Counted from the first letter of the stretch, positions 5,463 to 61,505 are shown. The stretch is DNA of 64,000 bases from an uncultured Candidatus Saccharibacteria bacterium (GCA_964554765.1 CAZKPS010000001.1:72786-136785), one strand, 5' to 3'. Notes: generated by a model from the sequence alone, not told the origin. A program made the numbers and translations.

Positions 5463-5490
5463 TTGACAAAATAGAGTGATTTGCTACAAT
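5463..5490 (+). promoter_or_regulatory. Sigma-70-like promoter (TTGACA-16-TACAAT) for a leaderless TrmB-family gene
   Basis: The -10 element ends about 8 nt before the ATG at 5499. Confidence 0.35.
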
Positions 5491-6260
5491 TGGAGTATAT
5501 GAAGGAAAAACTCTTAAAGATAGGCCTCAACCCTACTGAAATAGACATCTACCTCACCCTCCTAGAGCATGGCAAACTTCTGCCTGCAAATATAAGTAAA
5601 TTAACAGGTATCAACCGAAGTACGGCATATGCAGCCTGCGCAGAATTGTTGAAGAAAAACATTATTACAGAAGATCTCTCCGGTAAAACCAAATACTTTG
5701 TAGCACTCCCTCCAGAAAACCTCAAAAATCAAGTAAACAAAAAACTCCGGGAAATCAAAATCGAGGAAAGCATTATTAACGAGCTTATTCCAGAACTCGA
5801 GTCACTCCCAAAGTCCGGTAATTATTCAATACCTAGGGTACAGGTAGTTAATAGTGATGATATAGAGGATTTTCTCTACAAAAACACACCAATATGGGAA
5901 AAGAGTATGCGAGATCTAAATGAGAAGACTTGGTGGGGTTTTCAAGATCATGCCTTTGTAGAAAGTGACAAATATCGAAAATGGATTCTCTGGTATTGGA
6001 ATCGATCATCTGAAGATATGGATTTAAAACTTTTTACAAATGAATCCAAGATTGAAGAAAGAATGAGAGAGAAGAATATAACGAGAAGAAAACTGAAACC
6101 GTGGACTGGAGATAATTTTAGCTCAACACAATGGATACTTGGTGAATATATAGTATCCATTATGACTCGAGGAAAGCTCCACTACCTCGTACAAATTCGA
6201 GACCGTGTACTCGCAGATAGTATGCGAAATATGACAAAAAATCTCTGGATTAAGGATTAA
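5481..6260 (+). CDS. TrmB-family transcriptional regulator (likely true start ATG 5499)
   Basis: The track ORF begins at a TTG. From the ATG it reads MKEKLLKIGLNPTEIDIYLTLLEHG...INRSTAY, a TrmB-type N-terminal wHTH followed by a C-terminal sensing-like domain. Confidence 0.75.
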   Translation: MLQLEYMKEKLLKIGLNPTEIDIYLTLLEHGKLLPANISKLTGINRSTAYAACAELLKKNIITEDLSGKTKYFVALPPENLKNQVNKKLREIKIEESIINELIPELESLPKSGNYSIPRVQVVNSDDIEDFLYKNTPIWEKSMRDLNEKTWWGFQDHAFVESDKYRKWILWYWNRSSEDMDLKLFTNESKIEERMREKNITRRKLKPWTGDNFSSTQWILGEYIVSIMTRGKLHYLVQIRDRVLADSMRNMTKNLWIKD

Positions 6261-8561: not shown

Positions 8562-10442
8562 TTATTGTGTCACCTCACCCCAGCTATTTATCTGCCAATT
8601 TCCTCCACTACCACCCCCTCCACTACCACTTATTCCGGTTGTAATGAAATCAATAGATGTGAGACCACTGTTGTAAATTATATTCGAACCTCCATTTAGA
8701 ACTAGTCTTTTTGCAATAGCACTGTTCACAACACCACCACCAGAAATAGCCATTGTACCGTATGGAGCAAACACCACCATAGAACCAGATCCACCTTGTA
8801 TATCTACTGCATTACCGTTTTCTGGACCACTACAATTTCCAGTAGTTGGACACTGACTTGTCGTCATTGCTACCATATAGCTGCCACTCGTACCCGACCC
8901 TCTCATATCAGCCCCTCCGGTCACAATAATTCTTCCGTCAGCAATAATCATCCCATCGGATGCCCCACCAGATGAGGCGAGCTTAATCACAGATCCTCCA
9001 CTTAGATCAATATATCCGGTTACCCACACAGTCCCGGTCAGATTCAAAGTCGCTCCGCCACTCACAACAAGATTACCAACAATTTTCTTTGGCCCTAAAG
9101 ATGCCACTTGCCCTCCACCAAGACTGTATGTGCCATTATTTACACCACCTGCAGTTGCGACCGCTTTCCAATCAATAATGTTTTGATCTGTTATCGGATA
9201 ATCAAGAGGTGTAGGATCTGCACGACTAGTGTTACATATTTTTGTAGAATTGCTTAGGTTGTACAGATTTGTACCGCTTTGGCAATAAGCTGTGCCCGAA
9301 ACAGAAATATTACTAATCTGGTTCGCCCAAGCGTCACCAGAACCACCGGTGCCAATCTGAAGTCGTGTATACTGACCATTTCCAGAAATGGTATTCGGCA
9401 CCCCTCCTAAATAAATATCAAAATATAAATCATAACTTGATGGGATAATATTTACCCATGTATTTTGTCCATTACTTGAACTCCACTTACCGTATCGCGC
9501 ACCACCATTTGTATATATGTTACCTGCAGTCCCTGCGAGTGTAAAATATTTTGTTGTCGACACTGTTGGAGTATCAATTACAATCCAATATGTCGACCCT
9601 ACAGTAAGACTAGGTGCCTGTGTGATAGGAATATTTACATAGGTAAACGATGTGGTTACTGCACTTGCAGCAAGTGTTCCAGTACCTACAACACCACTAT
9701 TGGATGGTTTACCGCTCGCATCAGGTACAATACGAATAGTTGCATCCGATGGTGCTCCAGCTATTGTTTTTTTAATATAAAGCCTTACACTCGTGAGCTG
9801 TGCTGTTGACGTCACCTGAAAACTTTGCGCCAAATCCTGCGAAGCAGTAGTTGTACCCATATTAAGTGACAGCGGCGATGTTCCATCAGTATAACTATTC
9901 GTCTGATTTACAGTTGCAGGAGAGCTATTGCCCACAGTCACAGAGCCAGTTATTGAATTCACCGCGGAGTCAGCAGTTATGCTTCCATTTGAATATACAT
10001 CACCTGTAATAGTCGAACCCCCACCAATACTAATGCCTCCTGTGCCTATTTGTGCTCCATATGCAAATGCTATGACGGAACCTACTGGGGTTAGATATGT
10101 TGAGGCATAGCGAGTAGTATCACCACTTGTCCCAGTGGTAAGTATCTGCTGTTGTGTTCCTGCGAGAGTCACGGAGGCAGATGCTGCAACACCATTTGAA
10201 AATGGTAACGATAAAGTCGAAGGTAGAGTTCGTCCAAGTCTTAGTCTATAATACGCATCTTCATTTACACTATCTGCCGCCAGATAGCTCTGTCGAGACT
10301 TTGATGCCTGGAGTACGGACTTTACCTGATTGGAAGTTGGAATCACAACAGCAGAAATAACAGCCACAGAAATCACTAAAAAGAAAACCACGGTGGTAAT
10401 GATAGCAAAGCCTCTATTTGTTTCTATTTTTTTTGCACTCAC
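8562..10442 (-). CDS. Large pilin-like / pilus-associated protein (possible tip adhesin or minor pilin)
   Basis: 626 aa. The N-terminus (KKIETNRGFAIITTVVFFLVISV) is prepilin-like but lacks Glu at position +5. The rest is Gly/Ser/Thr-rich. It is the last gene of the pilB-pilC-pilin operon. Confidence 0.5.
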   Translation of the reverse strand: MSAKKIETNRGFAIITTVVFFLVISVAVISAVVIPTSNQVKSVLQASKSRQSYLAADSVNEDAYYRLRLGRTLPSTLSLPFSNGVAASASVTLAGTQQQILTTGTSGDTTRYASTYLTPVGSVIAFAYGAQIGTGGISIGGGSTITGDVYSNGSITADSAVNSITGSVTVGNSSPATVNQTNSYTDGTSPLSLNMGTTTASQDLAQSFQVTSTAQLTSVRLYIKKTIAGAPSDATIRIVPDASGKPSNSGVVGTGTLAASAVTTSFTYVNIPITQAPSLTVGSTYWIVIDTPTVSTTKYFTLAGTAGNIYTNGGARYGKWSSSNGQNTWVNIIPSSYDLYFDIYLGGVPNTISGNGQYTRLQIGTGGSGDAWANQISNISVSGTAYCQSGTNLYNLSNSTKICNTSRADPTPLDYPITDQNIIDWKAVATAGGVNNGTYSLGGGQVASLGPKKIVGNLVVSGGATLNLTGTVWVTGYIDLSGGSVIKLASSGGASDGMIIADGRIIVTGGADMRGSGTSGSYMVAMTTSQCPTTGNCSGPENGNAVDIQGGSGSMVVFAPYGTMAISGGGVVNSAIAKRLVLNGGSNIIYNSGLTSIDFITTGISGSGGGGSGGNWQINSWGEVTQ

Positions 10443-10451
10443 AGAAATATA

Positions 10452-10967
10452 TTAATGATAATAACCTCGAAGCACTGCTGTACCATAAAACTTTTCGCTT
10501 ACATCTGGTGTAGAAGTTGGACCTTCCATCACTATCTCATATTTGATCGCTTGTGATGTTGTGGTGGACATAATTTTAAAATGGAGAGATGTCACCTGCA
10601 TATTTGAGAGTGTGACAGGTCCAGTTGTAACACCATTATCATCAACCATGACACGGTCCCCTGCTCTATAAAACCTACTTGTTCGTGTACTTCCGCCAGA
10701 CGTTGGTATAGTTAGCGTCAACTCATCATTGTCATATGGATAGCTCGTGACAAGAGAGGCACTAGATGCAGCCCGAATTTCTCTGACGATCTTATCACTA
10801 AATGCTATTGAGGAATTTTCTACTCTTCTTGTTGCTTTAACCACACTATTTGCAGTCAAAAGCATATTAATCACTGTAGTAATAACACCCACCAGAAGAG
10901 CCATAAGTGATACATATATGATAGTCTCAATCAAAGAATAACCTTTTTTAGCTTCTACTGATTTCAT
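10452..10967 (-). CDS. Type IV pilin-like protein (prepilin-type N-terminal domain)
   Basis: KKGYSLIETIIYVSLMALL is a class III signal peptide with Gly-1 and Glu+5. Confidence 0.7.
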   Translation of the reverse strand: MKSVEAKKGYSLIETIIYVSLMALLVGVITTVINMLLTANSVVKATRRVENSSIAFSDKIVREIRAASSASLVTSYPYDNDELTLTIPTSGGSTRTSRFYRAGDRVMVDDNGVTTGPVTLSNMQVTSLHFKIMSTTTSQAIKYEIVMEGPTSTPDVSEKFYGTAVLRGYYH

Positions 10968-11464
10968 TAATTATTGAATATATTAAATAGGTAAGTTTCA
11001 CCTGATTTCGTTGTTGTTGATACACCTTCCTTCCACGATACAGTAATCAATGCTTTTCGACTGTTATTATCAGTCGTCCCTCCACTTGTTACCACATTAA
11101 AATTGTTATCACGAGACACTGCTGATAAAACAAAGTCTATTTGATATCGGTTTTCGAGCTCAATATTTGTTGTTGTGGCAGTCCAAGTACCTGACCCTAC
11201 TGTAGAATCCCAATAGAGATGATACGTAGATCCAAGAGTAAGCGAAGCGATATTTGCCGTGTAACCAGAATCTCGAAGATAGTGTAGAACCTCAACCCCC
11301 TCTTCGACTAACTGTGTCGCCTTGAGTGCTCGCACATTTGAAAGTGAATATCGTGCAACGGCACTATATACAGAGACAAGTGTAAAAAGTGTCAGTGATA
11401 TAATACTTGAGGCAATAATTACCTCAATCATACTGAATCCCCTTTTTTTATTTTTAATATTCAT
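10967..11464 (-). CDS. Type IV pilin-like protein (prepilin-type N-terminal domain)
   Basis: KRGFSMIEVIIASSII prepilin motif. Start and stop overlap the neighbouring genes. Confidence 0.7.
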   Translation of the reverse strand: MNIKNKKRGFSMIEVIIASSIISLTLFTLVSVYSAVARYSLSNVRALKATQLVEEGVEVLHYLRDSGYTANIASLTLGSTYHLYWDSTVGSGTWTATTTNIELENRYQIDFVLSAVSRDNNFNVVTSGGTTDNNSRKALITVSWKEGVSTTTKSGETYLFNIFNN

Positions 11465-11497: not shown

Positions 11498-11956
11498 TTA
11501 TTGTATATCAATAACTCCCGTTGCGTAAATAGTGATAGTCTTTGTTTTAGTCCCATCGGCCGATGTCACCGTTATTGTACCTGTCTTACTTGCAGCACCT
11601 GTTAGTTTATTAAAGTACAAACTAGTGGCACCTCCTGTAAGTGTTATGGCACTGATATTTGACTTCCCTGAGACATCGTATGATGTCTCGATATTAGAGA
11701 CATTGTAGGTAGTTGTTTTGAATACTGTCACCTTTTTTGTTTCAAAGAATACACCATGTTCCAAAGAATTAACTGAGTTTATAGATTCTGTTTTTGCCTT
11801 ATCAATATACGAAACAATATTTGACACATCTTTATCAAGCGAGATTGAATTCGCAAGTCCTGAAAATACTGAGACAGATGCAGCTCCAAGTACTCCAAGA
11901 ATAGCGATACTCATAAGAATCTCTATTATTGTTATTCCTTTATTTTTTGATTTCAT
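11498..11956 (-). CDS. Type IV pilin (probable major pilin)
   Basis: KGITIIEILMSIAILGVLGA prepilin motif, 152 aa, directly downstream of pilC. Confidence 0.7.
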   Translation of the reverse strand: MKSKNKGITIIEILMSIAILGVLGAASVSVFSGLANSISLDKDVSNIVSYIDKAKTESINSVNSLEHGVFFETKKVTVFKTTTYNVSNIETSYDVSGKSNISAITLTGGATSLYFNKLTGAASKTGTITVTSADGTKTKTITIYATGVIDIQ

Positions 11957-11971
11957 TACTACTCAAATGGA

Positions 11972-13174
11972 CTAAATATTATTAAGCACAGTATACATCG
12001 GTGTAATCATAGATACCGCAAAAAAACCCACCGAAAGCCCTATAATCACCATCAAAAAAGGCTCGATAATCGTAGACATATTTTTTGTCTTTTGATCCAC
12101 CTCATCCTCATAATATGTAGCAACTTCTTTCAACATAGTAGAAAGATTACCTGTCTCCTCTCCCACTGATACCATTTCCACTATAAAAGCAGGGTAAAGA
12201 TTTGGGTATTTTGAAATAACATCAGACATTGGCATTCCCTTTTCTATTACCGCAACAACCCTTTCTAACACTTCTTTATAATATGAGTTTTGCATAACCT
12301 CCTTAGTTATTTCTGCAGAACGAATAACAGGCACTCCGGCTGAGAGTAGTGAAGCAAGTGTTCTGGATGTTCTTGCGGTATTCATCTCTTTAGCAATATC
12401 CTTGATAAGAGGTGCATGCAAAACAATAAAATCCATTACTCTTTTACCCTTCTTTGTCTTCAAAGAACTAGAGAGGGATATGACAAGAAAGACAATAATC
12501 GCAATAAATATAAAGTAGTGATTTTGAAGAAAGTCAGAAACATTGATCACAAACTGTGTTGATGCAGGTAATTCTGCATGAAGTTCCTTGAATGTACCAG
12601 TAAGCGATGGTACAACAAATGTAAGCATCAAAATCCCGATCACTACCATAAGCGAAAGAATAATGGCTGGATAAATCAATGCACCTTTTACCCTCTTATA
12701 CAATGTATTTGCCTTTTCCATCTGACTCCCGACAATTTTTAGAGACTCAGCCAATGAACCGGACTCCTCTCCTGCCTTTACCATCGCCACAAACAGATCG
12801 TTAAAAACATCAGGGAATTCCTGCATAGCCTCGTGTAGAGTTCTGCCTTCAGCAACAGATGTTTCAAGTCTGTTTAAAACAGTTTTGAGCTTCTTGTTTT
12901 TTGCTTGCTTTTCCATTACCTGTATTGAACGAGAAAGAGAAAGTCCGGCAGCAAGCATCGAACCCAAATTTCGTGCAAAGAAAATTTTTTCAGATGTTTT
13001 CACTTTGCCATTCAAAAATGGAATATTAATATCTCTTGATTTTTCTTCAGTGATTGTAAGTGGTGTAATATTTTCCTTTTTAAGCATCCGAAAGAGCATA
13101 TATCTATCAGACGCCTCGAACATTCGTTCGCTGGTTCCCCCTTCTGCAGTTGTAAATGTTATTTTATATTGCAT
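11972..13174 (-). CDS. pilC: Type IV pilus / T2SS platform protein PilC (GspF family)
   Basis: 400 aa with duplicated GspF domains and three TM segments (LIYPAIIL..., [12 protein letters not shown]...). Confidence 0.85.
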
Positions 13175-13255: not shown

Positions 13256-15007
13256 TTATTCTGATATAACTCGAAGAACCTCTTCTATCACAGTAAAACC
13301 CTTTACCGCCTTTACGATTCCGTCTTCAATCATTGTAAGCATCCCTTCTTTCTTCGCCTGTTCTTCAATATCATCAGATGTACCACCTTTCATAATAATA
13401 GTTCTGATTGTAGGTGTTACCTTGAGCACTTCATGAATACCTATTCGACTGTGGAAACCATCAGGATGATCAGATGTTATGTTCGGCTTCCAAAATGGAA
13501 CCTTATCCCATGTATCATTTTGGTCTACTATATTTTCTTTCTTCAACACTTCAAGAATTTTATTGAGATTGACTTTTTTACCAAGCACAGCCTGCTCATC
13601 TTTTGTGAGATAGAACTTTTCTTTTGGTTCAAATAGTCTTCGAACAAGTCTTTGTCCGATAATTACATTGAGTGTAGATACGAGAAGAAAAGGTTCAGCG
13701 TGCATATCAAGAAGTCGAGGGATGGCTCCAGCAGCAGAGTTTGTGTGAAGTGTAGAAAGCACAAGATGTCCTGTAAGTGCAGCATTGATAGCGAGAGACG
13801 CTGTCTCATTATCTCGAATCTCTCCCACCATAATCACATCAGGATCTTGTCGCACAAGTGACCGAAGACCTGACGAGAACGTAAATCCAATTTCAGGCTT
13901 TACTTGAGTCTGATTAACACGCTTCATTTGATATTCTACTGGATCTTCGATAGTAGAAATATTTACATCAGGGGTATTTAGAATATCGAGTACAGTGTAG
14001 AGTGTTGTCGATTTACCCGATCCTGTAGGACCTGTAGTAAGTATCATTCCAGTTGTAAGTTTTGTTGCCTCATGAAGTTGCTCGAGAGCATCCCCGTGAA
14101 ATCCGAGCGACTCAAGTGTAAACCCAGATACACCTTCACGAAGCAATCGCATAACAGTCTTTTCACCAAAATATGTAGGAAGAATCGAAACTCGAAACGC
14201 AACTTTCTCGCCATTTAGATCTATCTTAAATCGTCCATCCTGTGGAAGTCGTTTTTCATCGAGTTTCAGGTTTGAGAGCACCTTGAGACGTGCTGTTATA
14301 CCTGCTCCCGCATTCTTTGGAAGAACCATTGCGTCATGGAGGAGTCCATCGATTCGATACCTAATCACTACTTCATTCTCATATTGTTCAATATGAATAT
14401 CGGATGCATCTTGTAGGATCGCATGCTTGAGCAACGTATCAACGATTCGGACCACTGGCAAATCTTCTGCCATCTTCTTCAAATCATCAGCATTTTGCTG
14501 TCCATCCGCTTCAGTAATTGCAGTGATATTAGCCGACTCTTTTTGAATAAGATCACCGAAATCTGCCTTAAGTGACTTTTGATACTGTAGAAGTACCGTC
14601 TTTATGGATTCAGTAGTAGTAAGACGAGGTAAAATCTTGAGACCAGTCTTCTTCTTGATAAAATCAATAGCATTTAGATCGCCAATATCGAGCATTGCTA
14701 TTTCAAGACCATTCTGTCCCTTTTTATAGGCAACAATATTATGTTTACGAGCAATTGGTTCTGGTACAAGTGACAAAACATCAAAATCAATCTTGAGACC
14801 GCTACCAAGATCAACAAATGGAATACCGAGTATGTATGCACTAATTCTTCGAAGATCATCTTCTGTAATCTTGCCGTTCGAAACAAGAAACTCTCCGAGT
14901 GGTTGCTTCTTTTCTTCTGCATCTTGCTTTGCTTTTGTGAGAGTAGCCTTATCAACAAGACCAGCATCCAGAACAAAATCCTCAAGTTGTTTATCTTTAA
15001 GTATCAT
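13256..15007 (-). CDS. pilB: Type IV pilus assembly ATPase PilB (GspE family)
   Basis: 583 aa with an N-terminal MshEN/T2SSE_N domain, Walker A (GPTGSGKSTT) and His box. Confidence 0.9.
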   Translation of the reverse strand: MILKDKQLEDFVLDAGLVDKATLTKAKQDAEEKKQPLGEFLVSNGKITEDDLRRISAYILGIPFVDLGSGLKIDFDVLSLVPEPIARKHNIVAYKKGQNGLEIAMLDIGDLNAIDFIKKKTGLKILPRLTTTESIKTVLLQYQKSLKADFGDLIQKESANITAITEADGQQNADDLKKMAEDLPVVRIVDTLLKHAILQDASDIHIEQYENEVVIRYRIDGLLHDAMVLPKNAGAGITARLKVLSNLKLDEKRLPQDGRFKIDLNGEKVAFRVSILPTYFGEKTVMRLLREGVSGFTLESLGFHGDALEQLHEATKLTTGMILTTGPTGSGKSTTLYTVLDILNTPDVNISTIEDPVEYQMKRVNQTQVKPEIGFTFSSGLRSLVRQDPDVIMVGEIRDNETASLAINAALTGHLVLSTLHTNSAAGAIPRLLDMHAEPFLLVSTLNVIIGQRLVRRLFEPKEKFYLTKDEQAVLGKKVNLNKILEVLKKENIVDQNDTWDKVPFWKPNITSDHPDGFHSRIGIHEVLKVTPTIRTIIMKGGTSDDIEEQAKKEGMLTMIEDGIVKAVKGFTVIEEVLRVISE

Positions 15008-15065
15008 CGATAATATTATATCAAAGAATTGTATATAGTATATGGCATATGTACATTAAAAAAAT

Positions 15066-15104
15066 AAAATACCCTGCAACTTTGTTGCAGGGTATTTTAT
15101 TTTT
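15066..15104. terminator. Terminator between the Cys-rich protein gene and pilB
   Basis: Hairpin accctgcaac-tttg-ttgcagggt with a T-run after it and an A-run before it. Confidence 0.6.
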
Positions 15105-17226
15105 AATTTGCTTCCAGTGTTCGAATATTTAACCGACAAGATCCAACCGATGTTTCATATGTTGTCTCATCTGTAATATCACCATCATGACACTTGAGCA
15201 TATATGTCATATCCTTCTTAACGTTCGGCATCGAATAAGTAGTTATACCTTCACCATCAGAAGTAAGATCAGCAGGATCAAATGTCCGTATAACACCATC
15301 CTGACTTGAAAGCGTACAGTGCGTTGTAACATCAAAAGCATCAAACACTTCAGAATCCTTACCGATATTTATTTTGCAAGTACCGTTTCGATCAACGATT
15401 GGTGTCACATCGAGTTTTCTATTTAGTGATACATTACCCTTAAATACACAGATATTTGAATTTGCACAATCATTGCCTAGATAACACTTATTCGAGCAAA
15501 TACCTTTATTTTCACAGTATGTGAGTCCGTTCGCACACATGAGATTTGCCTGACAACCCTGATTTAGACCACCTTCTGACCCAAGACAACTCCAGTTAAA
15601 TATTTTTCCATTCTTGGTTACCGTAGACTTAGTACCAGAAGAACAAGCTGCTGTACCAGTAATATCAGATACATAGCTTGCACCACTACTTGATATAGAC
15701 CCGCACACACCACTTACTGGATTGCATACCCCATTTTTACAAGGAAAACATTGACGATCTTGATTTATGTAGTAACCAGACGGAACTGGGATATTCCCTA
15801 GATTCACACACAAATGATTATTGTTACACTGATTGACATTTATCTGGTTTCCAGGATTATCAGGACCAGGACACACATCAACACATTCTGCTGGGTCGGT
15901 CTGTACTCCAGATTGCGGACACCAGTCTACAGCATCACAAAGTCCACTAGAACAGGTAGGCGTTGTTTCAGAACAGATTAACTGCTCTATGTACGAACTG
16001 AGAATATTGGATTCACTCTGAGTAAGAACAACTGTACATGCACCACCAATAAGTGCTCTGTCAAAGACGAAGGGATTGGTAATATCATTTGCAAACCTAT
16101 AACCATTTGGACAAGTCACATCAACCAAAAATGCTATGAGACAAGAATCGTTGTACTGGCAAACCGGCCGATTGTAGTGAGGCGTACAATTTATATTTTG
16201 ATTCCCTCCATTACAATCTGCTTCTGTTTCATAATTTGTTGCGTTCTCATCAGCACAATAATCGCGATCCGGATATCTACAGAGACTATCATTTCGACTA
16301 CAAGGTCGACGATCTTCAGGTATACTATTATTACAATCAGTTTGTGTTTCTGCGTTTAACGCAGGAGTTGTTGTGTCACCACAAAATTCTACAGGATCAT
16401 ATGTACAGTGAGCAGATGGATTTCCCGCGATACAATTCCTATCTGGATTGCTTGCCTGACAATCAGCTTGTGTTTCAAAGTTATTTGCTTCTGGGTCAGG
16501 GCAATAATATACCTTGCATCTTGCATCATCACTGTCTGATGTACAGTATTCACAAGTACCACTGTTGTTTTCAATTTTTTTAGGATCTGAGGTCTCATCT
16601 GGGCATTCGTCGTCATAATTAAGTGCATTGGTGTCTGCACAACAAAATTCTTCGCACCCCTCGTATATACATGCTGCATAAGCACCATAATTACACGCTT
16701 CTGCATCATTACAATACACAATACAAACGGGCGGATCATCATTATTGAAAATCTTCCCCTCTCCGCAGTTGTTACAGAGAGGTGGATTAATCGCACCATT
16801 ATTACAAGTACTAGGCACACATTCACAGCTTTCGCTATCACGCACATATCCTTGCTGTGTACAAGGTCCATAACACTGCCCATCCCCTTCGCACATGCTC
16901 TGCCCAGAAGAACACTCGTCACAATCAGGAGGATTATTTGCACCATTACTACATTCATCATTTACACATTCACAGCTTTCAGCATCTCTTGATTGTCCAA
17001 TCTCACACTGTGTATAACAACTTCCAAGACACTCATCCTCATTTGATCCACACACACAGCTGCAACTCGAATCAAGTTGCTTGCCTCCAGAACATTCAGA
17101 GACACATTGATCATTACATTCCACTTGTCCATTTGGGCAAGTCAAATCTGCAAATGTCTTAGTGTAGCCAACGAAAACACCTAGCACTAGCAGAGAAACA
17201 AGTAATGTAATTTTAATTTTATTCAT
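15103..17226 (-). CDS. Secreted, extremely cysteine-rich repeat protein (function unknown)
   Basis: 707 aa with a signal peptide (MNKIKITLLVSLLVLGVFVGYT) and well over 100 Cys. It has internal repeats (SCECV..C.NGA.NPP.C) and about four copies of an A-x-N-x-E-T-x-A-D-C motif. It abuts the upstream TPR gene (stop/start 3 nt apart). Confidence 0.6.
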   Translation of the reverse strand: MNKIKITLLVSLLVLGVFVGYTKTFADLTCPNGQVECNDQCVSECSGGKQLDSSCSCVCGSNEDECLGSCYTQCEIGQSRDAESCECVNDECSNGANNPPDCDECSSGQSMCEGDGQCYGPCTQQGYVRDSESCECVPSTCNNGAINPPLCNNCGEGKIFNNDDPPVCIVYCNDAEACNYGAYAACIYEGCEEFCCADTNALNYDDECPDETSDPKKIENNSGTCEYCTSDSDDARCKVYYCPDPEANNFETQADCQASNPDRNCIAGNPSAHCTYDPVEFCGDTTTPALNAETQTDCNNSIPEDRRPCSRNDSLCRYPDRDYCADENATNYETEADCNGGNQNINCTPHYNRPVCQYNDSCLIAFLVDVTCPNGYRFANDITNPFVFDRALIGGACTVVLTQSESNILSSYIEQLICSETTPTCSSGLCDAVDWCPQSGVQTDPAECVDVCPGPDNPGNQINVNQCNNNHLCVNLGNIPVPSGYYINQDRQCFPCKNGVCNPVSGVCGSISSSGASYVSDITGTAACSSGTKSTVTKNGKIFNWSCLGSEGGLNQGCQANLMCANGLTYCENKGICSNKCYLGNDCANSNICVFKGNVSLNRKLDVTPIVDRNGTCKINIGKDSEVFDAFDVTTHCTLSSQDGVIRTFDPADLTSDGEGITTYSMPNVKKDMTYMLKCHDGDITDETTYETSVGSCRLNIRTLEAN

Positions 17227-17228
17227 TC

Positions 17229-18362
17229 TTATTTTGAATTAATCTTTGCGGATATTACTTTTATTTTTATATTTATATTTTGAGATGGGATGTATGTAGG
17301 TATAAGCTTGAGCAGATTTTTTTTATCATCTGTATCAATAAAAGGGTACGCCTCAATACTCTTTTTTGCGAGCACTGAATACTTATCATATTTATCTTTA
17401 TCTTTTGATAAACTAGCTATTCTTGAAAGTAGTATATATGTGTACGGGTAGAGAGGATCGACAATAACTGCCTTTTCTGCTAGTTCTTTCGCCCGCAGTG
17501 TTGATGTGGCAACACTTGAAAGACTGAAAGACCTTGCAAATTCAGTCTCCGCAAGTCCATAAAGTGCATAGACAGATGTTGGATTCGTTTCGAGTGCAAA
17601 ATTATAAAATCTCTCTGAATCAAAATAATTTTTATTTTTAAAATAGAGCTGTCCAATCAGCTCAGCAAGCTGAGCCTTATCCGATGATTCAAGTGTTGAA
17701 TCCGTATACACTTCTCTTGCATAATTTAGTGCCAAATCATATCTCTTTTGTAACTGCATCAGTTTGGTGATGCCGATTCTCGCTTTTATGTTCGTAGGAT
17801 CAATGCTAATAACCCTATTGTAATACTCATATGACTTGTTCACATTATGATTGAGCAGCGCAAGATCACCTAGGCTTATTTGTAAATCTACAGATCCTGG
17901 GTCCAAGTCGAGTGCCTTTTTATAAAAAATTTCAGCTGATTTGATCTCTCCGAGATTAAAATATGCTATTCCCTTTGTCTTATATAACTCGGGAATCTCG
18001 TTATTTATAGACTCAGCACTGTTAACAAACTTTATAGCTTTCAAAAACATCTCCTGTCGAGCTTCTGCATCTTTACTCATCTCACCTAGTCCTATATAGG
18101 TACGAGCAGCTAGTATCAAGAAATATGGATCATTAGAATTGTTAGCAAGAAAACCCTGGAGTTCCTGCTCCGCGAGCACATATTCGTGACTGTTAATCAG
18201 AATAGTCAGATGTGAATAATCACTGACATGCATCCGGTTATAGACATAGCGACCTACAAAAAACAAAACAATAAGTAATAGAGCGATTACAAAAATAACC
18301 CTCATTCTCTTCGATCCAAAATTTATTTTTGGTAGGTTTTTTTTAAAAAAATCTTTCATCAC
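17229..18362 (-). CDS. Membrane-anchored TPR-repeat protein
   Basis: 377 aa with one N-terminal TM helix followed by multiple TPR-like repeats (AxxYxxxG, YNRVISIDP...). Confidence 0.7.
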   Translation of the reverse strand: MMKDFFKKNLPKINFGSKRMRVIFVIALLLIVLFFVGRYVYNRMHVSDYSHLTILINSHEYVLAEQELQGFLANNSNDPYFLILAARTYIGLGEMSKDAEARQEMFLKAIKFVNSAESINNEIPELYKTKGIAYFNLGEIKSAEIFYKKALDLDPGSVDLQISLGDLALLNHNVNKSYEYYNRVISIDPTNIKARIGITKLMQLQKRYDLALNYAREVYTDSTLESSDKAQLAELIGQLYFKNKNYFDSERFYNFALETNPTSVYALYGLAETEFARSFSLSSVATSTLRAKELAEKAVIVDPLYPYTYILLSRIASLSKDKDKYDKYSVLAKKSIEAYPFIDTDDKKNLLKLIPTYIPSQNINIKIKVISAKINSK

Positions 18363-23861: not shown

Positions 23862-24593
23862 TTATTTTCTAGAATTTTGCCACAGGTATGCAAATATCTT
23901 TCGGAATGCATCAGAAATAATTTTGTTCTTAAGAATCATTCCCATCGGCTCCTTTTTATCAAAAGCCACAATTGCAAGCTTATCGTCAAAAATATTAATC
24001 TCAATCCCCAGATCCTTGAACACATCGGAGAATCTCATATCACGAAGAAGCTCTTTAGCTCGAGTTTTATCTCTCTTGCCATATTTATCCATCGGAAGCA
24101 AACTCTTGACCGATACCCCAGCTTTCACTCGATACGGAAAATAATCTTCATCAAAAAAATCATTCATAGTCTCATATGCTTTTTGATAGTCAGTGATAGC
24201 GAGGATATGCTTCTCATTATTCTCTCTCCAAGTCTCACCGTAGAGTTTCTTTACCGCCTCTTTCCCTTCAAAATACCGAATACCCGAATGTAGTACTGGA
24301 TACTTTTTCTTTTTGAACACCCCTCTAAGTTTTTCCGATTCTTCCTCGAGAGATTTTATCTTTCTTTTAGACCACACCTCAAACTCCTCCTCCGAAATAG
24401 ATTGAAAAAGTGTCGTATCATTTTTCTTGATCTGACTTACAAGCCCCTTCTCTTCGAGAAGAGTGAGCGTGTGATAAAGTGCTGTTCGATTGAGACTCGT
24501 GTCCTTGGCGATCTGGGATACGGGAGATGGTCCGAAACTTGCGAGAGCTTCAAACACCGCTCTCTCCTTTTCACTCATGAGTTCGTTATTCAT
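23862..24593 (-). CDS. TrmB-family transcriptional regulator
   Basis: N-terminal wHTH (VFEALASFGPSPVSQIAKDTSLNRTALYHTLTLLEEKGLV), C-terminal domain. Confidence 0.7.
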   Translation of the reverse strand: MNNELMSEKERAVFEALASFGPSPVSQIAKDTSLNRTALYHTLTLLEEKGLVSQIKKNDTTLFQSISEEEFEVWSKRKIKSLEEESEKLRGVFKKKKYPVLHSGIRYFEGKEAVKKLYGETWRENNEKHILAITDYQKAYETMNDFFDEDYFPYRVKAGVSVKSLLPMDKYGKRDKTRAKELLRDMRFSDVFKDLGIEINIFDDKLAIVAFDKKEPMGMILKNKIISDAFRKIFAYLWQNSRK

Positions 24594-29133: not shown

Positions 29134-29931
29134 TTATTTTTCCTCAGTTTTACCGTCCAACCTTTTCGCCTCTTTCCACGCTAGTTCAAAAAGTTTTTTG
29201 AGAGCATCAGCAATCTCTTCACTTTCTATAATAATACCAAGCTCCTCTCTCCAGGATGCAATCATCACTTTGTTATCATAAATTTCTATATCAGGAGAAA
29301 TGTCAAAAAGTTCTTTTGGTACAAGAGCGAGCTCTCGAGCCTCAAACGGATTCATCTTTTTTCGCTCAAGTGCCAACTCTGTTGCAGGAACAATACCCCG
29401 AACAAACAAACCCTTCGCCGCCCGTCTCCTGTAATAGTCAGGAAAATATCCTTTGAGAGTTTTGTGCATATCATCATAGGAAGCCATTGCCACAAAAGGT
29501 CCAGATGCAGTCAAGGTATCTTCATATACTTTTTTCATTCCCTCAATACCTTCATAAAATTTTACTTGTGGCCGAGTACCGACTTTATACATGGACTTAA
29601 GCTCGGGCAATAGTAATTGTGCATACCTATAGTCCTCTTCTTTTCGCTCAATATTGTGACGCAGAAATTTTAATATCTGTTCAGGATCCTCACATCGATA
29701 CTCTTGTTTTGGTTCTTTCCCAGAAATACTCACAAGACCCTTTTGTGCCAGGCTTGCCAAAATATCGTAGGCACCCGTTCTATTAATACCAGCCCTTTTT
29801 GCAATCTCACTTACTTTACCTTTTCCTATCCCTAAGAATGAAATGTAGAGCTCAGACTCTTTTTTGTTGAGACCCAGCTTTTGTAAAGCGTTTTGAAAAG
29901 TTCCACTCTGACCTTCTTCGTATTTTGTCAT
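29134..29931 (-). CDS. TrmB-family transcriptional regulator (close paralog of 62920..63708)
   Basis: wHTH (SEIAKRAGINRTGAYDILASLAQKGLVSISGKEPKQEYR). The C-terminal IYDNKVMIASWREELGIIIESEEIADALKKLFELAW is shared with the paralog. Confidence 0.75.
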   Translation of the reverse strand: MTKYEEGQSGTFQNALQKLGLNKKESELYISFLGIGKGKVSEIAKRAGINRTGAYDILASLAQKGLVSISGKEPKQEYRCEDPEQILKFLRHNIERKEEDYRYAQLLLPELKSMYKVGTRPQVKFYEGIEGMKKVYEDTLTASGPFVAMASYDDMHKTLKGYFPDYYRRRAAKGLFVRGIVPATELALERKKMNPFEARELALVPKELFDISPDIEIYDNKVMIASWREELGIIIESEEIADALKKLFELAWKEAKRLDGKTEEK

Positions 29932-31443: not shown

Positions 31444-32241
31444 TTATTCGTATTTCGTTCCTGTCCAACTCAATTCAAAAATCATCTTCATAAGTCCGTG
31501 AATTGTTGGATCTTCGATAATGACTCCTGTTAACTTTTCTTTACCGAGGTTTATGATCGAAACATTTTTTTCACCATAGATTGTAATCTCGGCCTTGTAG
31601 GGGAATTTCTCTGCCGGGATGAATCGTGCATTAGGCATCAATTCTTCTTTGAAATCACCGTACGATCTCTCAACAAAGGTCTTGTCTATGTTTGTATCTG
31701 GGAAAATAACTCTTGAACTAATTCCTTTCTGTTTCTTTGTCTTAATATAATTTCTAAAAAAGTCTCTCGGCACCTGTTCCTCCACCTCTTGAACATTCGC
31801 CCACGCGAGCATTTCATATGGCTTCGATACATTAATATGTGTTGCATAAATATCAAGCACACCCTCAATACCTTCATAATACGTAATCTTTGGTTTATCG
31901 GCCGCTCCCAATAACCCCTCGAGATCAGGAAGAATCCTCTGGACATTCTCAATCTCATCTTGGATGATAGACATTTTGGATTTGGCATACCGCACGAGCT
32001 TGGTTGGACTCTCGAGTTGATAGAATTGTTTATTCTTCTTTTCTATCTCATTCACTACCCCCTTTACTGACATTTGGGTGAGCAACATATAGACCGTACT
32101 TCGATTAAGTCCAGTGTATTCTGCAATCTTTGACGGATATGCTCCTCCGAGCTCAAGGAGTGCTACATATATTAAAGACTCTTTGTCAGAGAGACCTGAC
32201 TTTTGGAGCTTTTTGAGGAGATTTTCGTGTTTTATGCTCAT
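31444..32241 (-). CDS. TrmB-family transcriptional regulator
   Basis: wHTH (IYVALLELGGAYPSKIAEYTGLNRSTVYMLL) plus a C-terminal domain. Confidence 0.75.
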   Translation of the reverse strand: MSIKHENLLKKLQKSGLSDKESLIYVALLELGGAYPSKIAEYTGLNRSTVYMLLTQMSVKGVVNEIEKKNKQFYQLESPTKLVRYAKSKMSIIQDEIENVQRILPDLEGLLGAADKPKITYYEGIEGVLDIYATHINVSKPYEMLAWANVQEVEEQVPRDFFRNYIKTKKQKGISSRVIFPDTNIDKTFVERSYGDFKEELMPNARFIPAEKFPYKAEITIYGEKNVSIINLGKEKLTGVIIEDPTIHGLMKMIFELSWTGTKYE

Positions 32242-45046: not shown

Positions 45047-45781
45047 CTACTCACTTTTCTCCCAGAGCATCTTCCAAACCGATCTGAGACTCTCGGCAAT
45101 TGATTGATTTTTGATGATGATTCCCATCTCGTCTTTAGTTGAAAGCATCGCCACTTTATCGTCGAAGATCATAATTTCATTATTTATCCTGTGGTTTTCT
45201 GGTATCAGACGCACCTCTCTCAAAACTTCCTCCCCTTCTCTCTTATCCTGTTCCCCCACTTCACCACCTGGAGCGAATCCTCGAACCCTAATCCCCTTCT
45301 TAACCCTCTGCCTTACATAATTATCTACATACTCCCCACCAAAATACTCCTTCACCTCTTTGGAATTTGTAAAAGTCAAAATCTCTCCCTTTGATAATAA
45401 ACTTTCTTCATAGATTTGCTTAAGACCCTCCCTTGTACTGACAGTTGTGATTCTTGGCCTTTTCTCATTATTTTTATTTTTGACCAAGTCAACTAGACTC
45501 TCCTCGAGTATCCCGAGCCCCTCTTTATGTTTCTTTATCAGAATCTGAGGATTGAGCGCCCCAAAGTACATAACACCCTTCATCTTAAACCCTGACACAA
45601 TACCTCTACTCGAAAGGCGCTTCAGGACCTCAAAATTAGTAATCCGATTTAGCTTTGATTCTCTAGCAATCTGACTATTTGTTGCCGAACCGAGCCCAAG
45701 GAGTGCTAAATAAACCGCCGCCTCGTTCTCCGAGAATCCTAATCCACCAAGTTCTTTCCTGATATCAATCTGCATATTCAA
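45047..45781 (-). CDS. TrmB-family transcriptional regulator
   Basis: wHTH (AAVYLALLGLGSATNSQIARESKLNRITNFEVL). The C-terminal MGIIIKNQSIAESLRSVWKMLWE is shared with the family. Confidence 0.7.
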   Translation of the reverse strand: MNMQIDIRKELGGLGFSENEAAVYLALLGLGSATNSQIARESKLNRITNFEVLKRLSSRGIVSGFKMKGVMYFGALNPQILIKKHKEGLGILEESLVDLVKNKNNEKRPRITTVSTREGLKQIYEESLLSKGEILTFTNSKEVKEYFGGEYVDNYVRQRVKKGIRVRGFAPGGEVGEQDKREGEEVLREVRLIPENHRINNEIMIFDDKVAMLSTKDEMGIIIKNQSIAESLRSVWKMLWEKSE

Positions 45782-53222: not shown

Positions 53223-55481
53223 ATGCCAGATAAAATTCCACCACCAGATGAAATAAATGCAGGATCACCAGAATCTCAACCTGGGGTAGATGTTGAGACC
53301 ATTCTAGAGGAAAAAATTGCCCCTATTAGAAGTGCAATTGCTAACGGAAGACCTATTGATGTTGAAGATTACAGAGCATTTTTTGCTGCTATACCTGACA
53401 AAGGCACCGTAAGCGATGATGATTATGAAATTGCAAGGGAATACGCAGAAAATCTCTTGAAGCTTTTTCGTAGTGAGAATGTCGAGATTAAGATATCGGA
53501 TACTCAAACTAAGAAATTTAATGAGCTTGAAAAGGAGCGTAAGGAACGAGAGGAAAAGCAGAAGGAAGATCTTGAAAATTTTCTAGAGCTTAAGAGAGAA
53601 ATAACTGGTTATATTCATAACAACCAATTTATTCCTTTTGCTCTCGCAGTAAAAGCAGAATCATTACTAGAAGATATTCCAGAGGAGGAAAGGGATGAAT
53701 TCGATATATTGATGAATCAAGACAAGGTAAGAATCATTCAAAAAAGTAATAGTCGACAAATCACTTGGAATGACTTCTTGATTAGAAATTCGCCAGAGAT
53801 GATTGAGATGAAAGAACTCATAACAAAACTTCAAGAGATAGTTAATGATAAAAATCCAAATCCAATTCCCGTTGAATATCTGGAAAGTCTTCATGAATTT
53901 TTAAAGACAGATGATGATCGTGTTGTATCTCTGCTTTTGCGCAACCAGATCCTTTCTGGTATGAAAAATGCAACAAAGAAAAAACCAATCTTGGTCACCT
54001 TAGCTGATGGAAATACAGTAGAAGTAAAATCTGATGTATTTGACTCGGCTGATAAATTACCAAAGCCAGAAACTCCTGCCCCAGCAAAAATCGAGCCCAC
54101 TCCAGCTGCTACACCTGAACCAACCCCTGCTACTGCAAAAGTCACAGCCTCTTCAACAGCATCTGTTGCAGAAGCACCAGTCAAACCAGAAGCTACACCA
54201 GCAGTAGAGCCTCCTCTCAAGATAGACCCAGAAACATATAAAAGACAGCTTGCACTAGAACTTGAGTCAATTGAGATGCATACAATTGAGCACATCCTCG
54301 AGGAAATAGTAGTAGAGTTCAGTAAACTAAGTAAAAAAGATAAAGAAGTATTTAAAGAGCTTCTAGAAAAAATATCTCCTTCTTCTCACGATAATCACGG
54401 AGACCACCACGAAGAAGAGCACGATACTCATCATAACGAACATGATAGTGGACATACGCACAGTACAGAACACGAGAAATCTCCTGCAGAACTCGCAGAG
54501 ATAGTAAGTGGATTCCTAAAAAAACTTGAGTCCAGTGATGAGCTTGAGATGAGTGATGCAACACGTCAATCACTCAAAGGTATGTTCTACAATCTCAGAG
54601 TAGAGGTAAGAAAAGCAGAAATAAAAGCATTAGATGAAGAAAAACTATTCAAAGATGACAAAGAGAAACTGAAAATATTTGAAGCAATTTCAAAATCAAA
54701 AAGGGAAAGTGAAGCGGCATATAATGATGAAATAAATATAATAGAGTCAAGACTTGATGAAGTGGAAGGTGACGAAAACATTCAGGATAGCTACCGCATT
54801 ATTTTACTTAGAGAGAAATTCATAAAAATCTTCGAGTACAACAAGAAGATGCGTGACTTCCTATCTAGAGAAATTGAGGAGCTGCGAAAAGCTCTCGAGG
54901 AGAAGAAAGCTGAACTCGAAGAAAAAATCAGAATCCGAGATGCGGCAGAAGAAGAGATGAGAGAAGCTGTCCGAAGCGGTGATAAGGAAAGAATCAAATC
55001 TACTACAGAAGTCTACAAAAAAGCACAGAAAGATGTTGATGAATTGGAAATAATTGTTCATGGATTGCAACTCAAAGTAAATGGTAAAGTCGCAGTACTT
55101 GAATCAGTAACACACAAGATTGAGGAAATAGAAGGAAAAAAGGCGGATATAGAAAAAAGTGACGACTTAGCAGAGGTTAGAGAAATAATTGAGGAAGTAG
55201 AAAAACTTTCAAAAGAAATCGACCACGAGTTAAAACCAGGTTTGCACGGAGATCATGGACACGAGCACGGACATCACCATGATGAGCCAAAGAAATCTCT
55301 ATTTAAATCGACAGTGACGTGGAGTCTCGTAGGTGGAGGGTTATTAATAGGGTTGTTCAATATTTTTGCAACAAATCTCTACAATACACTTCGAGGAGTA
55401 AAGGCAAGCGGAGGAGGAGGTGGTGGTCATGGTGGAGGACATGGAGGTGGCCACGGGCACGGTGGAGGCGGACACCATTAA
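53223..55481 (+). CDS. His-rich coiled-coil protein with a C-terminal TM anchor and a Gly/His tail (function unknown)
   Basis: 752 aa with long Glu/Lys coiled-coil segments, a Pro/Ala/Thr linker and three His clusters (HDNHGDHHEEEHDTHHNEHDSGHTH; HGDHGHEHGHHHDE; GGGHGGGHGGGHGHGGGGHH). There is a single TM helix near the C-terminus. Confidence 0.6.
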   Translation: MPDKIPPPDEINAGSPESQPGVDVETILEEKIAPIRSAIANGRPIDVEDYRAFFAAIPDKGTVSDDDYEIAREYAENLLKLFRSENVEIKISDTQTKKFNELEKERKEREEKQKEDLENFLELKREITGYIHNNQFIPFALAVKAESLLEDIPEEERDEFDILMNQDKVRIIQKSNSRQITWNDFLIRNSPEMIEMKELITKLQEIVNDKNPNPIPVEYLESLHEFLKTDDDRVVSLLLRNQILSGMKNATKKKPILVTLADGNTVEVKSDVFDSADKLPKPETPAPAKIEPTPAATPEPTPATAKVTASSTASVAEAPVKPEATPAVEPPLKIDPETYKRQLALELESIEMHTIEHILEEIVVEFSKLSKKDKEVFKELLEKISPSSHDNHGDHHEEEHDTHHNEHDSGHTHSTEHEKSPAELAEIVSGFLKKLESSDELEMSDATRQSLKGMFYNLRVEVRKAEIKALDEEKLFKDDKEKLKIFEAISKSKRESEAAYNDEINIIESRLDEVEGDENIQDSYRIILLREKFIKIFEYNKKMRDFLSREIEELRKALEEKKAELEEKIRIRDAAEEEMREAVRSGDKERIKSTTEVYKKAQKDVDELEIIVHGLQLKVNGKVAVLESVTHKIEEIEGKKADIEKSDDLAEVREIIEEVEKLSKEIDHELKPGLHGDHGHEHGHHHDEPKKSLFKSTVTWSLVGGGLLIGLFNIFATNLYNTLRGVKASGGGGGGHGGGHGGGHGHGGGGHH

Positions 55482-60719: not shown

Positions 60720-61505
60720 ATGGAAAATGTATTAAAACAATTGGGTTTAAATGAAAAGGAGATTTTAGTCTATAAATCACTCTTGGAAAGAGGTGCTTCG
60801 ACATCATCTTCACTTGCAAATGTTATTGACTTGCCACGACAGACTATCTACTCAATCCTTCAAAAACTATGTGATGAAGGAGTAATTGAGAAAGGCCCGT
60901 GGAAAGGGGCACACAAATTCATTGCCGACCCAACCAATCTTTCATCAATAGTGAGATTTAGGCAGAAAAAACTTACCCAAATAGGAAATACAATTGAGGA
61001 ATTGATGCCAGAACTTCTCACAATAACAAAACTCAGAGCAAACCGAAAACCTTCGGTTCAGTATTATGATGGGGTATTTGGGTTGAAGCGTCTTTTTGAT
61101 GAGATCATTGAACAATACAAAAGAAAAGAAGATACTATGTTTCGAGGATTCGGAATTAATTATTTTGAAAATACAGACATACAAGAAATTTTAAATGATT
61201 TTGTTAGAGAGAGATATAAATATGGTATAAAAACTCACTTACTTATTGGTAAAGGGGGGAATGATTTTGGCATTACGATAGATGGATCAACAACTTTAGG
61301 AAGAGAAGTCCGTAGTATAAATATGGAAGCACAAAATGCTGGCATCTACCTAGTAGGAGATCGTATTTATTTATTTTCTTACGAGGATGATGTGGGAATT
61401 ATGATTGAACAGAAACTTATTGCACAATTATTAAAAAATATTTTCGATTTGGAGTGGGATAAGGCAAAAGAGCTTGATAAAGAAATAAGAAGATTAGAGA
61501 AGTAA
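60720..61505 (+). CDS. TrmB-family transcriptional regulator
   Basis: wHTH (ILVYKSLLERGASTSSSLANVIDLPRQTIYSILQKL). The C-terminal ...WDKAKELDKEIRRLEK is identical to 62920..63708. Confidence 0.7.
   Translation: MENVLKQLGLNEKEILVYKSLLERGASTSSSLANVIDLPRQTIYSILQKLCDEGVIEKGPWKGAHKFIADPTNLSSIVRFRQKKLTQIGNTIEELMPELLTITKLRANRKPSVQYYDGVFGLKRLFDEIIEQYKRKEDTMFRGFGINYFENTDIQEILNDFVRERYKYGIKTHLLIGKGGNDFGITIDGSTTLGREVRSINMEAQNAGIYLVGDRIYLFSYEDDVGIMIEQKLIAQLLKNIFDLEWDKAKELDKEIRRLEK

Follow-up and report, generated by a model that had tools for sequence, protein, structure and literature searches.

A cysteine-rich secreted protein and its TPR partner beside the type IV pilus genes of a Candidatus Saccharibacteria bacterium: a possible lineage-specific pilus-locus accessory

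Described systems and how the locus compares

Patescibacteria spend their lives attached to other microbes; the device best supported for their attachment and uptake is the type IV pilus, and little is known of how they recognize hosts. For Saccharibacteria, the role of type IV pili in the episymbiosis of the Candidate Phyla Radiation (CPR) is established (PMC11623550). The subject here is a pair of genes beside the type IV pilus (pil) genes in a stretch of 64,000 nucleotides from an uncultured Candidatus Saccharibacteria bacterium (GCA_964554765.1 CAZKPS010000001.1:72786-136785), the whole of which is called the window. One gene encodes a secreted protein of 707 aa that is extremely rich in cysteine (Cys), and the other a membrane-anchored tetratricopeptide repeat (TPR) protein. 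The favoured reading, to which a probability of about 45% is given, is that the two form a lineage-specific accessory of the pilus locus, in which a disulfide-stapled surface protein is paired with the TPR protein, docks by its C-terminal end and would point its N-terminus outward.

Cys-rich extracellular proteins have been described in Peregrinibacteria, a CPR lineage, where they average 1,655 aa and are encoded in a 14-gene cluster with no stated linkage to pil or TPR genes (PMC4736985). They resemble the window protein in their CPR origin, their signal peptides, their Cys content of 7-10% and the rigidity or attachment proposed for them (PMC4736985); compared by description, they differ from the present family, which is defined by a C-terminal immunoglobulin (Ig)-like domain. 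An initial annotation, made from the sequence of the window, regarded such a protein as unusual for bacteria. Within the window it is extreme, but proteins of this kind had already been documented for CPR (PMC4736985), where it is less anomalous.

Tandem short beta-hairpin modules with four to six Cys each are also the building plan of EGF, furin-like/insulin-receptor Cys-rich (CR) and TNFR Cys-rich domain repeats, and the resemblance to these is only general. None of the EGF, furin-like or TNFR Pfam models matches the window protein at E<=1, and the ortholog P0003 is labelled 'EGF-like domain protein' by NCBI, yet no EGF model matches it. Foldseek with the N-terminal model against the PDB gave nothing significant (best E 0.095, probability 0.05, TM-score <0.1), the weak matches all being to eukaryotic Cys-rich repeats (LRP2, Pfs25, the insulin-receptor CR region and R-spondin).

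PilY1/PilC proteins (PF05567), the non-pilin adhesins associated with type IVa pili, are, like the window protein, large, Sec-exported without prepilin processing and encoded in a pil locus, and in both the N-terminal part varies while a C-terminal part for docking is conserved. The Cys-rich protein, however, has neither the seven-bladed beta-propeller nor a Pfam match, its C-terminal domain is Ig-like, its Cys density is far higher, and the gene to which its own is coupled, upstream of pilB, is that of a TPR protein and not part of a minor-pilin operon. CofJ and TcpF, which type IVb pilus operons encode, are secreted and dock to a minor pilin by a short terminal peptide. A Sec signal, encoding with a type IV pilus system and a conserved, apparently flexible terminal motif are found in these proteins as well as here, but the motif is N-terminal in CofJ/TcpF and C-terminal in the Cys-rich protein, and there is no relation in sequence or fold.

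The pilotins PilF, PilW, Tgl and TadD are TPR proteins encoded with pilus genes that precede or assist an exported partner, as does the TPR protein of the window. They are, unlike it, outer-membrane lipoproteins of diderms with a secretin partner, whereas the protein here has a transmembrane anchor. Secretin domains or N-domains (PilQ/GspD) were matched by neither Pfam nor NCBIfam in the Cys-rich protein, and CPR have been reported to lack PilQ (bioRxiv 10.1101/335083). Cargo proteins of the type IX secretion system (T9SS) likewise carry a conserved C-terminal beta-sandwich on otherwise unrelated passengers, but no Pfam or NCBIfam model of the T9SS C-terminal domain matches here, and that system belongs to Bacteroidota and needs an outer membrane, whereas the present proteins are from Patescibacteria. 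TPR domains hold C-terminal tails such as EEVD-COOH and PTS1. The Hop-EEVD and PEX5-PTS1 pairs resemble the window pair in that a TPR protein goes with a partner whose extreme C-terminus is invariant and acidic or aromatic (E-x-N in the present family, EEF in an analogous clade discussed below), although the compartment here is extracytoplasmic and the likeness is a mechanistic analogy.

A conserved C-terminal end on a variable Cys-rich chain

The two genes and the parts of their products are listed below. Models were made with AlphaFold2 (AF2), and confidence is given as the predicted local distance difference test (pLDDT).

15103..17226, minus strand: gene of the Cys-rich secreted protein, 707 aa plus stop, ATG start
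17149..17226, minus strand: Sec-type signal peptide, residues 1-26, predicted cleavage between TFA and D, read by eye
16732..17145, minus strand: N-terminal beta-hairpin Cys modules, residues 28-165, from self-alignment; AF2 pLDDT ~73-78, short strand pairs
16504..16731, minus strand: two degenerate CxDxxAxNY-type units, residues 166-241, from motif scan and self-alignment
16141..16503, minus strand: three ~40-aa four-Cys repeats, C-x-D-x-x-A-x-N-x-E-T-x-x-D-C...C...C-x-Y, residues 242-362, from motif and self-alignment
15892..16140, minus strand: mid domain, residues 363-445, with a predicted long helix, the domain ending in the DWCP motif, alignable in P0008, P0009 and P0013; AF2 pLDDT 46-61 (low)
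15736..15891, minus strand: CPxxxGxQ-type unit and linker, residues 446-497, 65% identical to both orthologs
15532..15735, minus strand: ~60-aa module GxCG...C..G.......W.C.G..GG....C.A, residues 498-565, the most widely shared piece; AF2 pLDDT 86-93
15436..15531, minus strand: Cys-knot-like linker, residues 566-597, the most conserved stretch (91% identity to both orthologs); AF2 pLDDT 60-68 (low)
15106..15435, minus strand: C-terminal Ig-like beta-sandwich domain, residues 598-707, family-defining
15106..15129, minus strand: invariant tail NIRTLEAN-COOH (family pattern CR[LI]N-x4-E-x-N)
17229..18362, minus strand: partner gene, N-terminally membrane-anchored TPR protein of 377 aa, Pfam TPR_1/TPR_2 E 1e-15
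18240..18302, minus strand: predicted transmembrane anchor of the TPR protein, residues ~21-41, sequence RVIFVIALLLIVLFFVGRYVY after a K/R-rich N-terminus
15061..15103, minus strand: intrinsic-terminator-like hairpin with T-run, 20-bp stem, free energy (dG) -32.7 kcal/mol, directly after the stop codon of the Cys-rich gene

The family is defined by its C-terminal end, because what distant members have in common is limited to the C-terminal 210-270 aa and the N-terminus is fast-evolving; the Cys-rich N-terminus is a variable, mosaic passenger. An exhaustive HMMER search over 1.84 billion representatives gave 63 matches, which fell into three groups. A handful are full-length orthologs (P0002, P0005, P0006, P0007), about a dozen proteins have only the C-terminal 210-270 residues in common with the query, and many large proteins share only the ~60-aa module (query residues 500-563), in up to 18 copies. 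The relatives found in this way number about 20 and are all from Patescibacteria, those with names being 'hypothetical proteins' of Patescibacteria, Paceibacterota or Candidatus Taylorbacteria. A signal peptide is present in every member, as is the ending ..C-R-[LI]-N-x4-E-x-N, while the N-terminal parts of the others are made of CPxxxGxQ repeats, CxDxxAxNY repeats or other Cys modules.

A search of a word-indexed protein database returned the window protein itself, two orthologs (62% and 47% identity) and one marginal match. With the C-terminal alignment as a profile, the same database gave P0010 only, and with the 86-aa module it gave no return, both results being limited by the index. A profile scan of genome contigs contributed four loci, one of which (L011, Spirochaetota) was dropped as spurious since it is without the domain. 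Neither Pfam nor NCBIfam matched the 707-aa protein at E<=1, the PDB sequence search gave no match at E<=10, and a Pfam/NCBIfam scan of seven relatives at E<=1 yielded no family. The statement of the initial annotation that no characterised family matches this protein is borne out even at these permissive thresholds. Within the databases and literature searched, no description was found of the family or of its C-terminal domain and tail, nor of its obligatory TPR partner or of the parallel unit with an EEF tail dealt with below.

Conservation in relatives, whose absence would have refuted the initial annotation, was also found. The orthologs P0002, P0003 and P0006 are 62%, 47% and 40% identical to the window protein, and 65 of its 74 Cys are invariant across three orthologs. 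Identity to the two closest orthologs is 31-61% in the N-terminal and middle regions and 60-91% from residue 498 on. Across 19 sequences with a mean identity of 35%, the positions that never vary are four Cys, one Thr and one Asp, and in the tail an Arg (after the last Cys) and a Glu (at -3). The window protein scores 164 bits against the hidden Markov model (HMM) of the domain and has the four conserved Cys and the tail Arg and Glu. The tail pattern CR[LI]N....E.N is nearly specific to the family among 5339 open reading frames (ORFs).

The C-terminal 212 aa were modelled from 15 sequences with a mean pLDDT of 81.9; a small module rich in beta structure is followed by a Cys linker that is poorly predicted and then by a beta-sandwich. 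The Ig-like sandwich has a pLDDT of 82-94, and its fold-search matches are generic Ig/FnIII. The tail is placed outside the modelled sandwich, and its pLDDT, invariant Glu included, falls to 39 at the end. An end that is invariant yet predicted to be flexible and free of the sandwich is what characterizes a short linear motif recognized by a partner. The ~60-aa module before it has no Pfam model and is a widespread unnamed repeat, present in up to 18 copies in large surface-type proteins (P0011, P0015, P0016, P0019, P0026) and also beyond CPR, in a Syntrophobacteraceae protein.

The N-terminal part is built of several kinds of Cys modules. A tandem duplication is seen at residues 67-110 and 117-160, with a local alignment score of 129 vs a shuffled-null maximum of 60; CxNGAxNPPxCxxC is present in both copies, and a CxNGAxNPPxC unit is repeated in P0004 and P0022 as well. 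The duplication had been proposed by the initial annotation as two modules of ~45 aa, and it stands with a period of ~50 aa. The A-x-N-x-(E/D)-T-x-A-D-C motif, put at about four copies, is real too, although its count is three exact matches to A.N.[ED]T.[AT]DC (residues 247, 289 and 329), each inside one of the ~40-aa four-Cys repeats, and two degenerate copies (residues 172-186 and 196-208). Canonical GCTDxxAxNYDxxAxxDDGSC units are found in the N-terminal extension of the ortholog P0003. The four-Cys repeats align pairwise with scores of 85 and 69, all of their 13 Cys are invariant in orthologs, and with a pLDDT of 84-92 (strand-helix-strand) they are predicted better than any other part of the N-terminal model. 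The CPxxxGxQ-type unit occurs in many repeats in P0008 and P0009. For residues 26-500, modelled from nine sequences, the mean pLDDT was 65.7, with the N-terminal modules at ~75 as hairpins and the mid domain poor.

The ORF and its signal peptide agree with what had been annotated. Its ATG is four codons past the preceding in-frame stop, and the N-terminus, MNKIKITLLVSLLVLGVFVGYTKTFA followed by D, has a basic n-region and a 16-residue hydrophobic core, the Ala-Asp junction being seen again in relatives. A Pfam search at E<=1 found no N_methyl/prepilin motif (PF07963) in the 707-aa protein, which sets it apart from type IV pilins and pseudopilins. The C-terminus, which reads ..GSCRLNIRTLEAN, is not that of a sortase, exosortase or rhombosortase substrate, since it has no LPXTG, PEP or GlyGly sorting signal and no hydrophobic segment. 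The Cys count is 74 (10.5%), not the more than 100 first claimed; it is an even number and still extreme against a median of 0.5% over 47 large ORFs of the window, in which this one protein holds 44% of all Cys. The Cys probably form disulfides. The mature chain is strongly acidic (D+E 98 vs K+R 36) and contains 10% Asn, and a DNA-binding or competence role was rejected on account of this acidity. No foreign-DNA signature was seen in the composition at the locus.

The TPR partner and the pilus locus

Pfam places TPR_1 at E 1e-15 in the gene upstream, in agreement with the TPR protein annotated there. By the positive-inside rule its N-terminus is inferred to lie inside, and it has no lipobox Cys. 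Its NCBIfam similarities to Tgl, PilW and GltE are weak and all far under cut-off (20.2 bits vs 154 for PilW, 23.8 vs 225 for Tgl), so that it does not qualify as a TPR pilotin. A TPR homolog detected by HMM lies immediately upstream of the C-terminal-domain gene in 10/10 independent loci. These TPR proteins are mutually homologous, and the full-length ones share the same kind of N-terminal hydrophobic anchor; the gene is split in L005 and cut by the contig end in L003. The TPR stop codon stands 2 nt before the ATG of the Cys-rich gene in the window, and across loci the two genes either lie 1-9 nt apart or share 4 nt.

Because the hairpin and a TATAAT box separate the Cys-rich gene from pilB, the TPR-Cys-rich pair looks, on sequence, like a bicistronic unit of its own beside the pil operon and not a part of it. 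Hairpins of other sequence are found at the same place in L001, L002 and L003, and no equivalent was found in L005 or L007. The co-transcription with the TPR gene that the initial annotation had proposed fits the closely spaced pair, and its description of a gene run with the pil genes needs qualifying in view of the hairpin and promoter-like box. The pilus genes downstream are as follows.

13256..15007, minus strand: pilB (assembly ATPase), the next gene downstream, Pfam T2SSE E 5e-118 plus MshEN
11972..13174, minus strand: pilC (platform protein), Pfam T2SSF E 1.6e-58
11498-11956, 10967-11464 and 10452-10967, minus strand: three pilin-like genes with N_methyl matches, one GspH-like
8562-10442, minus strand: 626-aa PilX-like large minor pilin, with an N-terminal hydrophobic segment and a W.I..W.E C-terminus as in its counterparts

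The order TPR, C-terminal-domain gene, pilB, pilC and pilins was found in L001, L002/L008, L003, L005, L007, L009 and L010, and L004 and L006 show the same order up to their contig ends. The synteny with pil genes was thus confirmed in every related locus examined, and pilB follows downstream in 8/8 loci that extend far enough. In closer relatives the collinearity reaches housekeeping genes (TrmB, trigger factor, NusA, PPase, TIM and PGK). Adjacency to the pil genes is therefore weak evidence, and the argument from position to a pilus or surface role, although the adjacency itself stands, is weaker than claimed. In L007 the NusA/PPase/trigger block is inverted and the TPR gene, the domain gene and pilB are still together.

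In L005, L006, L007 and L010 (L005:3572-6898, L006:32-877, L007:4625-6850, L010:302-2593) the gene just upstream of the TPR gene encodes a second protein with the C-terminal domain (E 1e-14 to 5e-20), otherwise different, with the tail ..CRLN..Y.EVN. Each of the three long proteins of this class combines a signal peptide with a large N-terminal domain and a pair of mid-chain transmembrane helices. L010 has two TPR genes, the pair there being duplicated or expanded. The window has at this position a 275-aa coiled-coil protein and an 82-aa transmembrane protein instead.

Eighty metagenome loci were retrieved via PilB at 38-74% identity, and the C-terminal domain was found in 0/80 of them. In several loci with ~70% identical PilB, NusA/PPase lies directly upstream of pilB, and the pair is absent within 8 kb of such pilB genes, some of them on contigs of 245-667 kb. 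Because it is absent beside these close pilB relatives, the pair is a lineage-restricted accessory and not core machinery; the lineage that carries it is narrow.

In another clade of Patescibacteria, whose PilB is 66-69% identical, the slot before pilB holds a Cys-poor secreted protein of Ig/PKD type. Eight such proteins (L022, L023, L025, L026, L027, L028, L038, L055) end in ..[QR]I[NK]F[ND]P..EEF-COOH, and in L022 (5587-7951), L023 and L038 a TPR gene with a transmembrane anchor precedes the EEF-tailed gene. The EEF-tailed proteins were considered as homologs of the C-terminal domain of the Cys-rich family and rejected, with an hhalign probability of 0.2%. Since the profile comparison shows no homology, the EEF-tailed unit is analogous and not related. 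The recurrence of a TPR protein and a tail-bearing secreted protein before pilB suggests that the arrangement is functional.

Some further observations concern these pil loci. The PilX-like 626-aa protein ends in ..NWQINSWGEVTQ, and the W.[IV]..W.E pattern is also present in its counterparts in L001, L002, L010 and L030; this end loosely recalls the tail of the Cys-rich family. In L007 (GCA_034680565.1, JAXOUH010021247.1) a diversity-generating retroelement lies between pilC and the pilin genes (L007:12800-15500). Its variable repeat (13452-13573) lies at the 3' end of a 171-aa ORF without signal peptide, its template repeat is at 13901-14022, the mismatches are all at template adenines, and bAvd and reverse transcriptase genes adjoin.

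Proposed mechanism and rival explanations

In the favoured reading, the Cys-rich protein would be exported and then folded oxidatively by an MdbA/VKOR-type system; CPR have been reported to be enriched in MdbA-like oxidoreductases and VKOR (bioRxiv 10.1101/335083). Its conserved C-terminal end would then dock, the free, flexible and invariant tail lying most likely in the extracytoplasmic TPR domain of the partner. The variable, acidic, disulfide-stapled N-terminal modules would form a rigid stalk through the wall or S-layer, which could contact the environment or a host surface near the pilus. The protein would most likely serve as a pilus-linked surface stalk or adhesin, and may take part in host attachment.

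Several results weigh against such a reading. The binding of the C-terminal tail by the TPR protein is a putative one, proposed by analogy. TPR and C-terminal-domain genes do not occur 1:1, since L005, L006 and L007 each have two domain proteins and one TPR gene. A strong terminator stands between the pair and pilB, and the adjacency to pilB may be partly phylogenetic inertia, the gene order being kept far beyond the pil genes. The fold matches are too generic to speak for an adhesive role, and the N-terminal and mid-domain models are of low confidence (mean pLDDT 65.7). For the oxidative step, DsbA/DsbB homologs had been named as a check; among the real genes of the 64-kb window no thiol-disulfide oxidoreductase motif (CxxC; DsbA/VKOR-type) was found.

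The same evidence can be read in favour of a protein that travels with the pilus itself, an accessory adhesin docked to it or a pilus-dependent secreted factor, like PilY1/PilC or CofJ/TcpF. The binding site of the C-terminal domain or tail would then be the tip complex of minor pilins (the PilX-like 626-aa protein with the three small pilins), the TPR protein would act only as a chaperone or in hand-over, and the variable Cys-rich part would be carried out on the pilus or expelled by it. A large protein in a pil locus, with a Sec and not a prepilin signal and a variable N-terminus before a conserved C-terminus, is what this would call for, and the conserved linear motif at the terminus is reminiscent of the peptides by which CofJ and TcpF dock. 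A conserved end, h-x-[IV]-x-x-W-x-E, is also found in the PilX-like proteins of these loci, but the tail resembles it weakly and at the level of a regular expression only. Moreover, it is to the TPR gene that the gene is coupled, rather than to the minor pilins, a terminator stands before the pil operon, the C-terminal domain is Ig-like with no PilY1 beta-propeller or Pfam match, and the locus already has a candidate tip adhesin in the PilX-like protein. On the side of this explanation, PilX2 of Saccharibacteria, a large minor pilin, has been proposed as the tip adhesin, which shows that tip-borne adhesion modules exist in the group (PMC11623550). Taken as a whole, this explanation is judged unlikely.

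If the pair acts on the passage of the pilus, the Cys-rich protein might oligomerise into an envelope collar or conduit leading the pilus across the wall or S-layer in a cell that has no outer membrane, with the TPR protein as a pilotin-like assembly factor. CPR lack PilQ and yet push their pili through an S-layer (bioRxiv 10.1101/335083), a TPR gene and then a secreted-protein gene stand directly before pilB, and the NCBIfam similarities of the TPR protein, weak as they are, point to Tgl, PilW and GltE. A core conduit would be expected to be as conserved as the motor, however, whereas the pair is missing near ~70% identical pilB genes, some on contigs of 245-667 kb, and the N-terminal two thirds of the protein evolve fast and are wholly different between members. 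There is no secretin or ring-forming domain, and the TPR protein scores far under the cut-offs (PilW 20 vs 154 bits) and has a transmembrane anchor instead of a lipobox. A conduit is accordingly held to be very improbable.

The Cys-rich protein could also have nothing to do with pili. It would then be secreted or at the surface, for example associated with the S-layer, binding metal or Ca, or acting as a defensive decoy, and its gene would be caught beside pilB in the frozen gene order of a reduced genome. The collinearity of the whole neighbourhood in relatives (TrmB, trigger factor, NusA, PPase ... TIM, PGK) fits this, as do the separate terminator of the pair and promoter-like box of pilB, the dispensability of the pair in related lineages and the fact that Cys-rich exported CPR proteins are not generally linked to pil genes (PMC4736985). 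It is nevertheless doubtful, since the pair is beside pilB in 8/8 sufficiently long loci, including L007 with its inverted housekeeping block and L010 with its duplicated or expanded pair, and an independent, non-homologous pair of a TPR and a secreted protein occupies the same slot of another clade, which argues that the slot is functional.

A wider proposal, and a rather improbable one, is that both clades have a hitherto unrecognised display or hand-over system on the type IV pilus machine of Patescibacteria, in which a membrane-anchored TPR receptor reads a short C-terminal tag on interchangeable, pre-folded passengers. The tags would be ..R[LI]N....E.N-COOH here and ..INF.P..EEF-COOH in the sister clade, and the Cys-rich protein would be one class of cargo. 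The receptor might tether the passengers at the pilus base, or it might feed them to the pilus, which would push them through the wall or S-layer like the piston of type II secretion.

For the favoured reading of a surface protein docked to its TPR partner, the interest lies in a secreted protein with a fast-evolving outward part, which together with the TPR protein is a concrete and testable candidate for an accessory of host contact or of the envelope. Mutagenesis, pull-downs and modelling of the complex have a precisely defined target in the invariant tail. If the pairing of tail and TPR protein is true, and in principle shared with the EEF-tailed clade, it would be a new coupling of surface proteins to the pilus in cells without an outer membrane; if it is false, the protein is one more lineage-specific Cys-rich surface protein of the kind known in CPR genomes.

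Two further features of the window were noted. At least seven paralogous TrmB-like helix-turn-helix regulator genes were recognized by eye in the 64 kb (5481-6260, 23862-24593, 29134-29931, 31444-32241, 45047-45781, 60720-61505 and 62920-63708), with Pfam TrmB matching the orthologs in L001, and those at 60720-61505 and 62920-63708 have the identical end ELDKEIRRLEK. At 53223-55481, on the plus strand, a 752-aa coiled-coil-type protein is encoded, with stretches rich in His and, at the C-terminal end, a hydrophobic segment that precedes a Gly/His tract (GGGGGGHGGGHGGGHGHGGGGHH).

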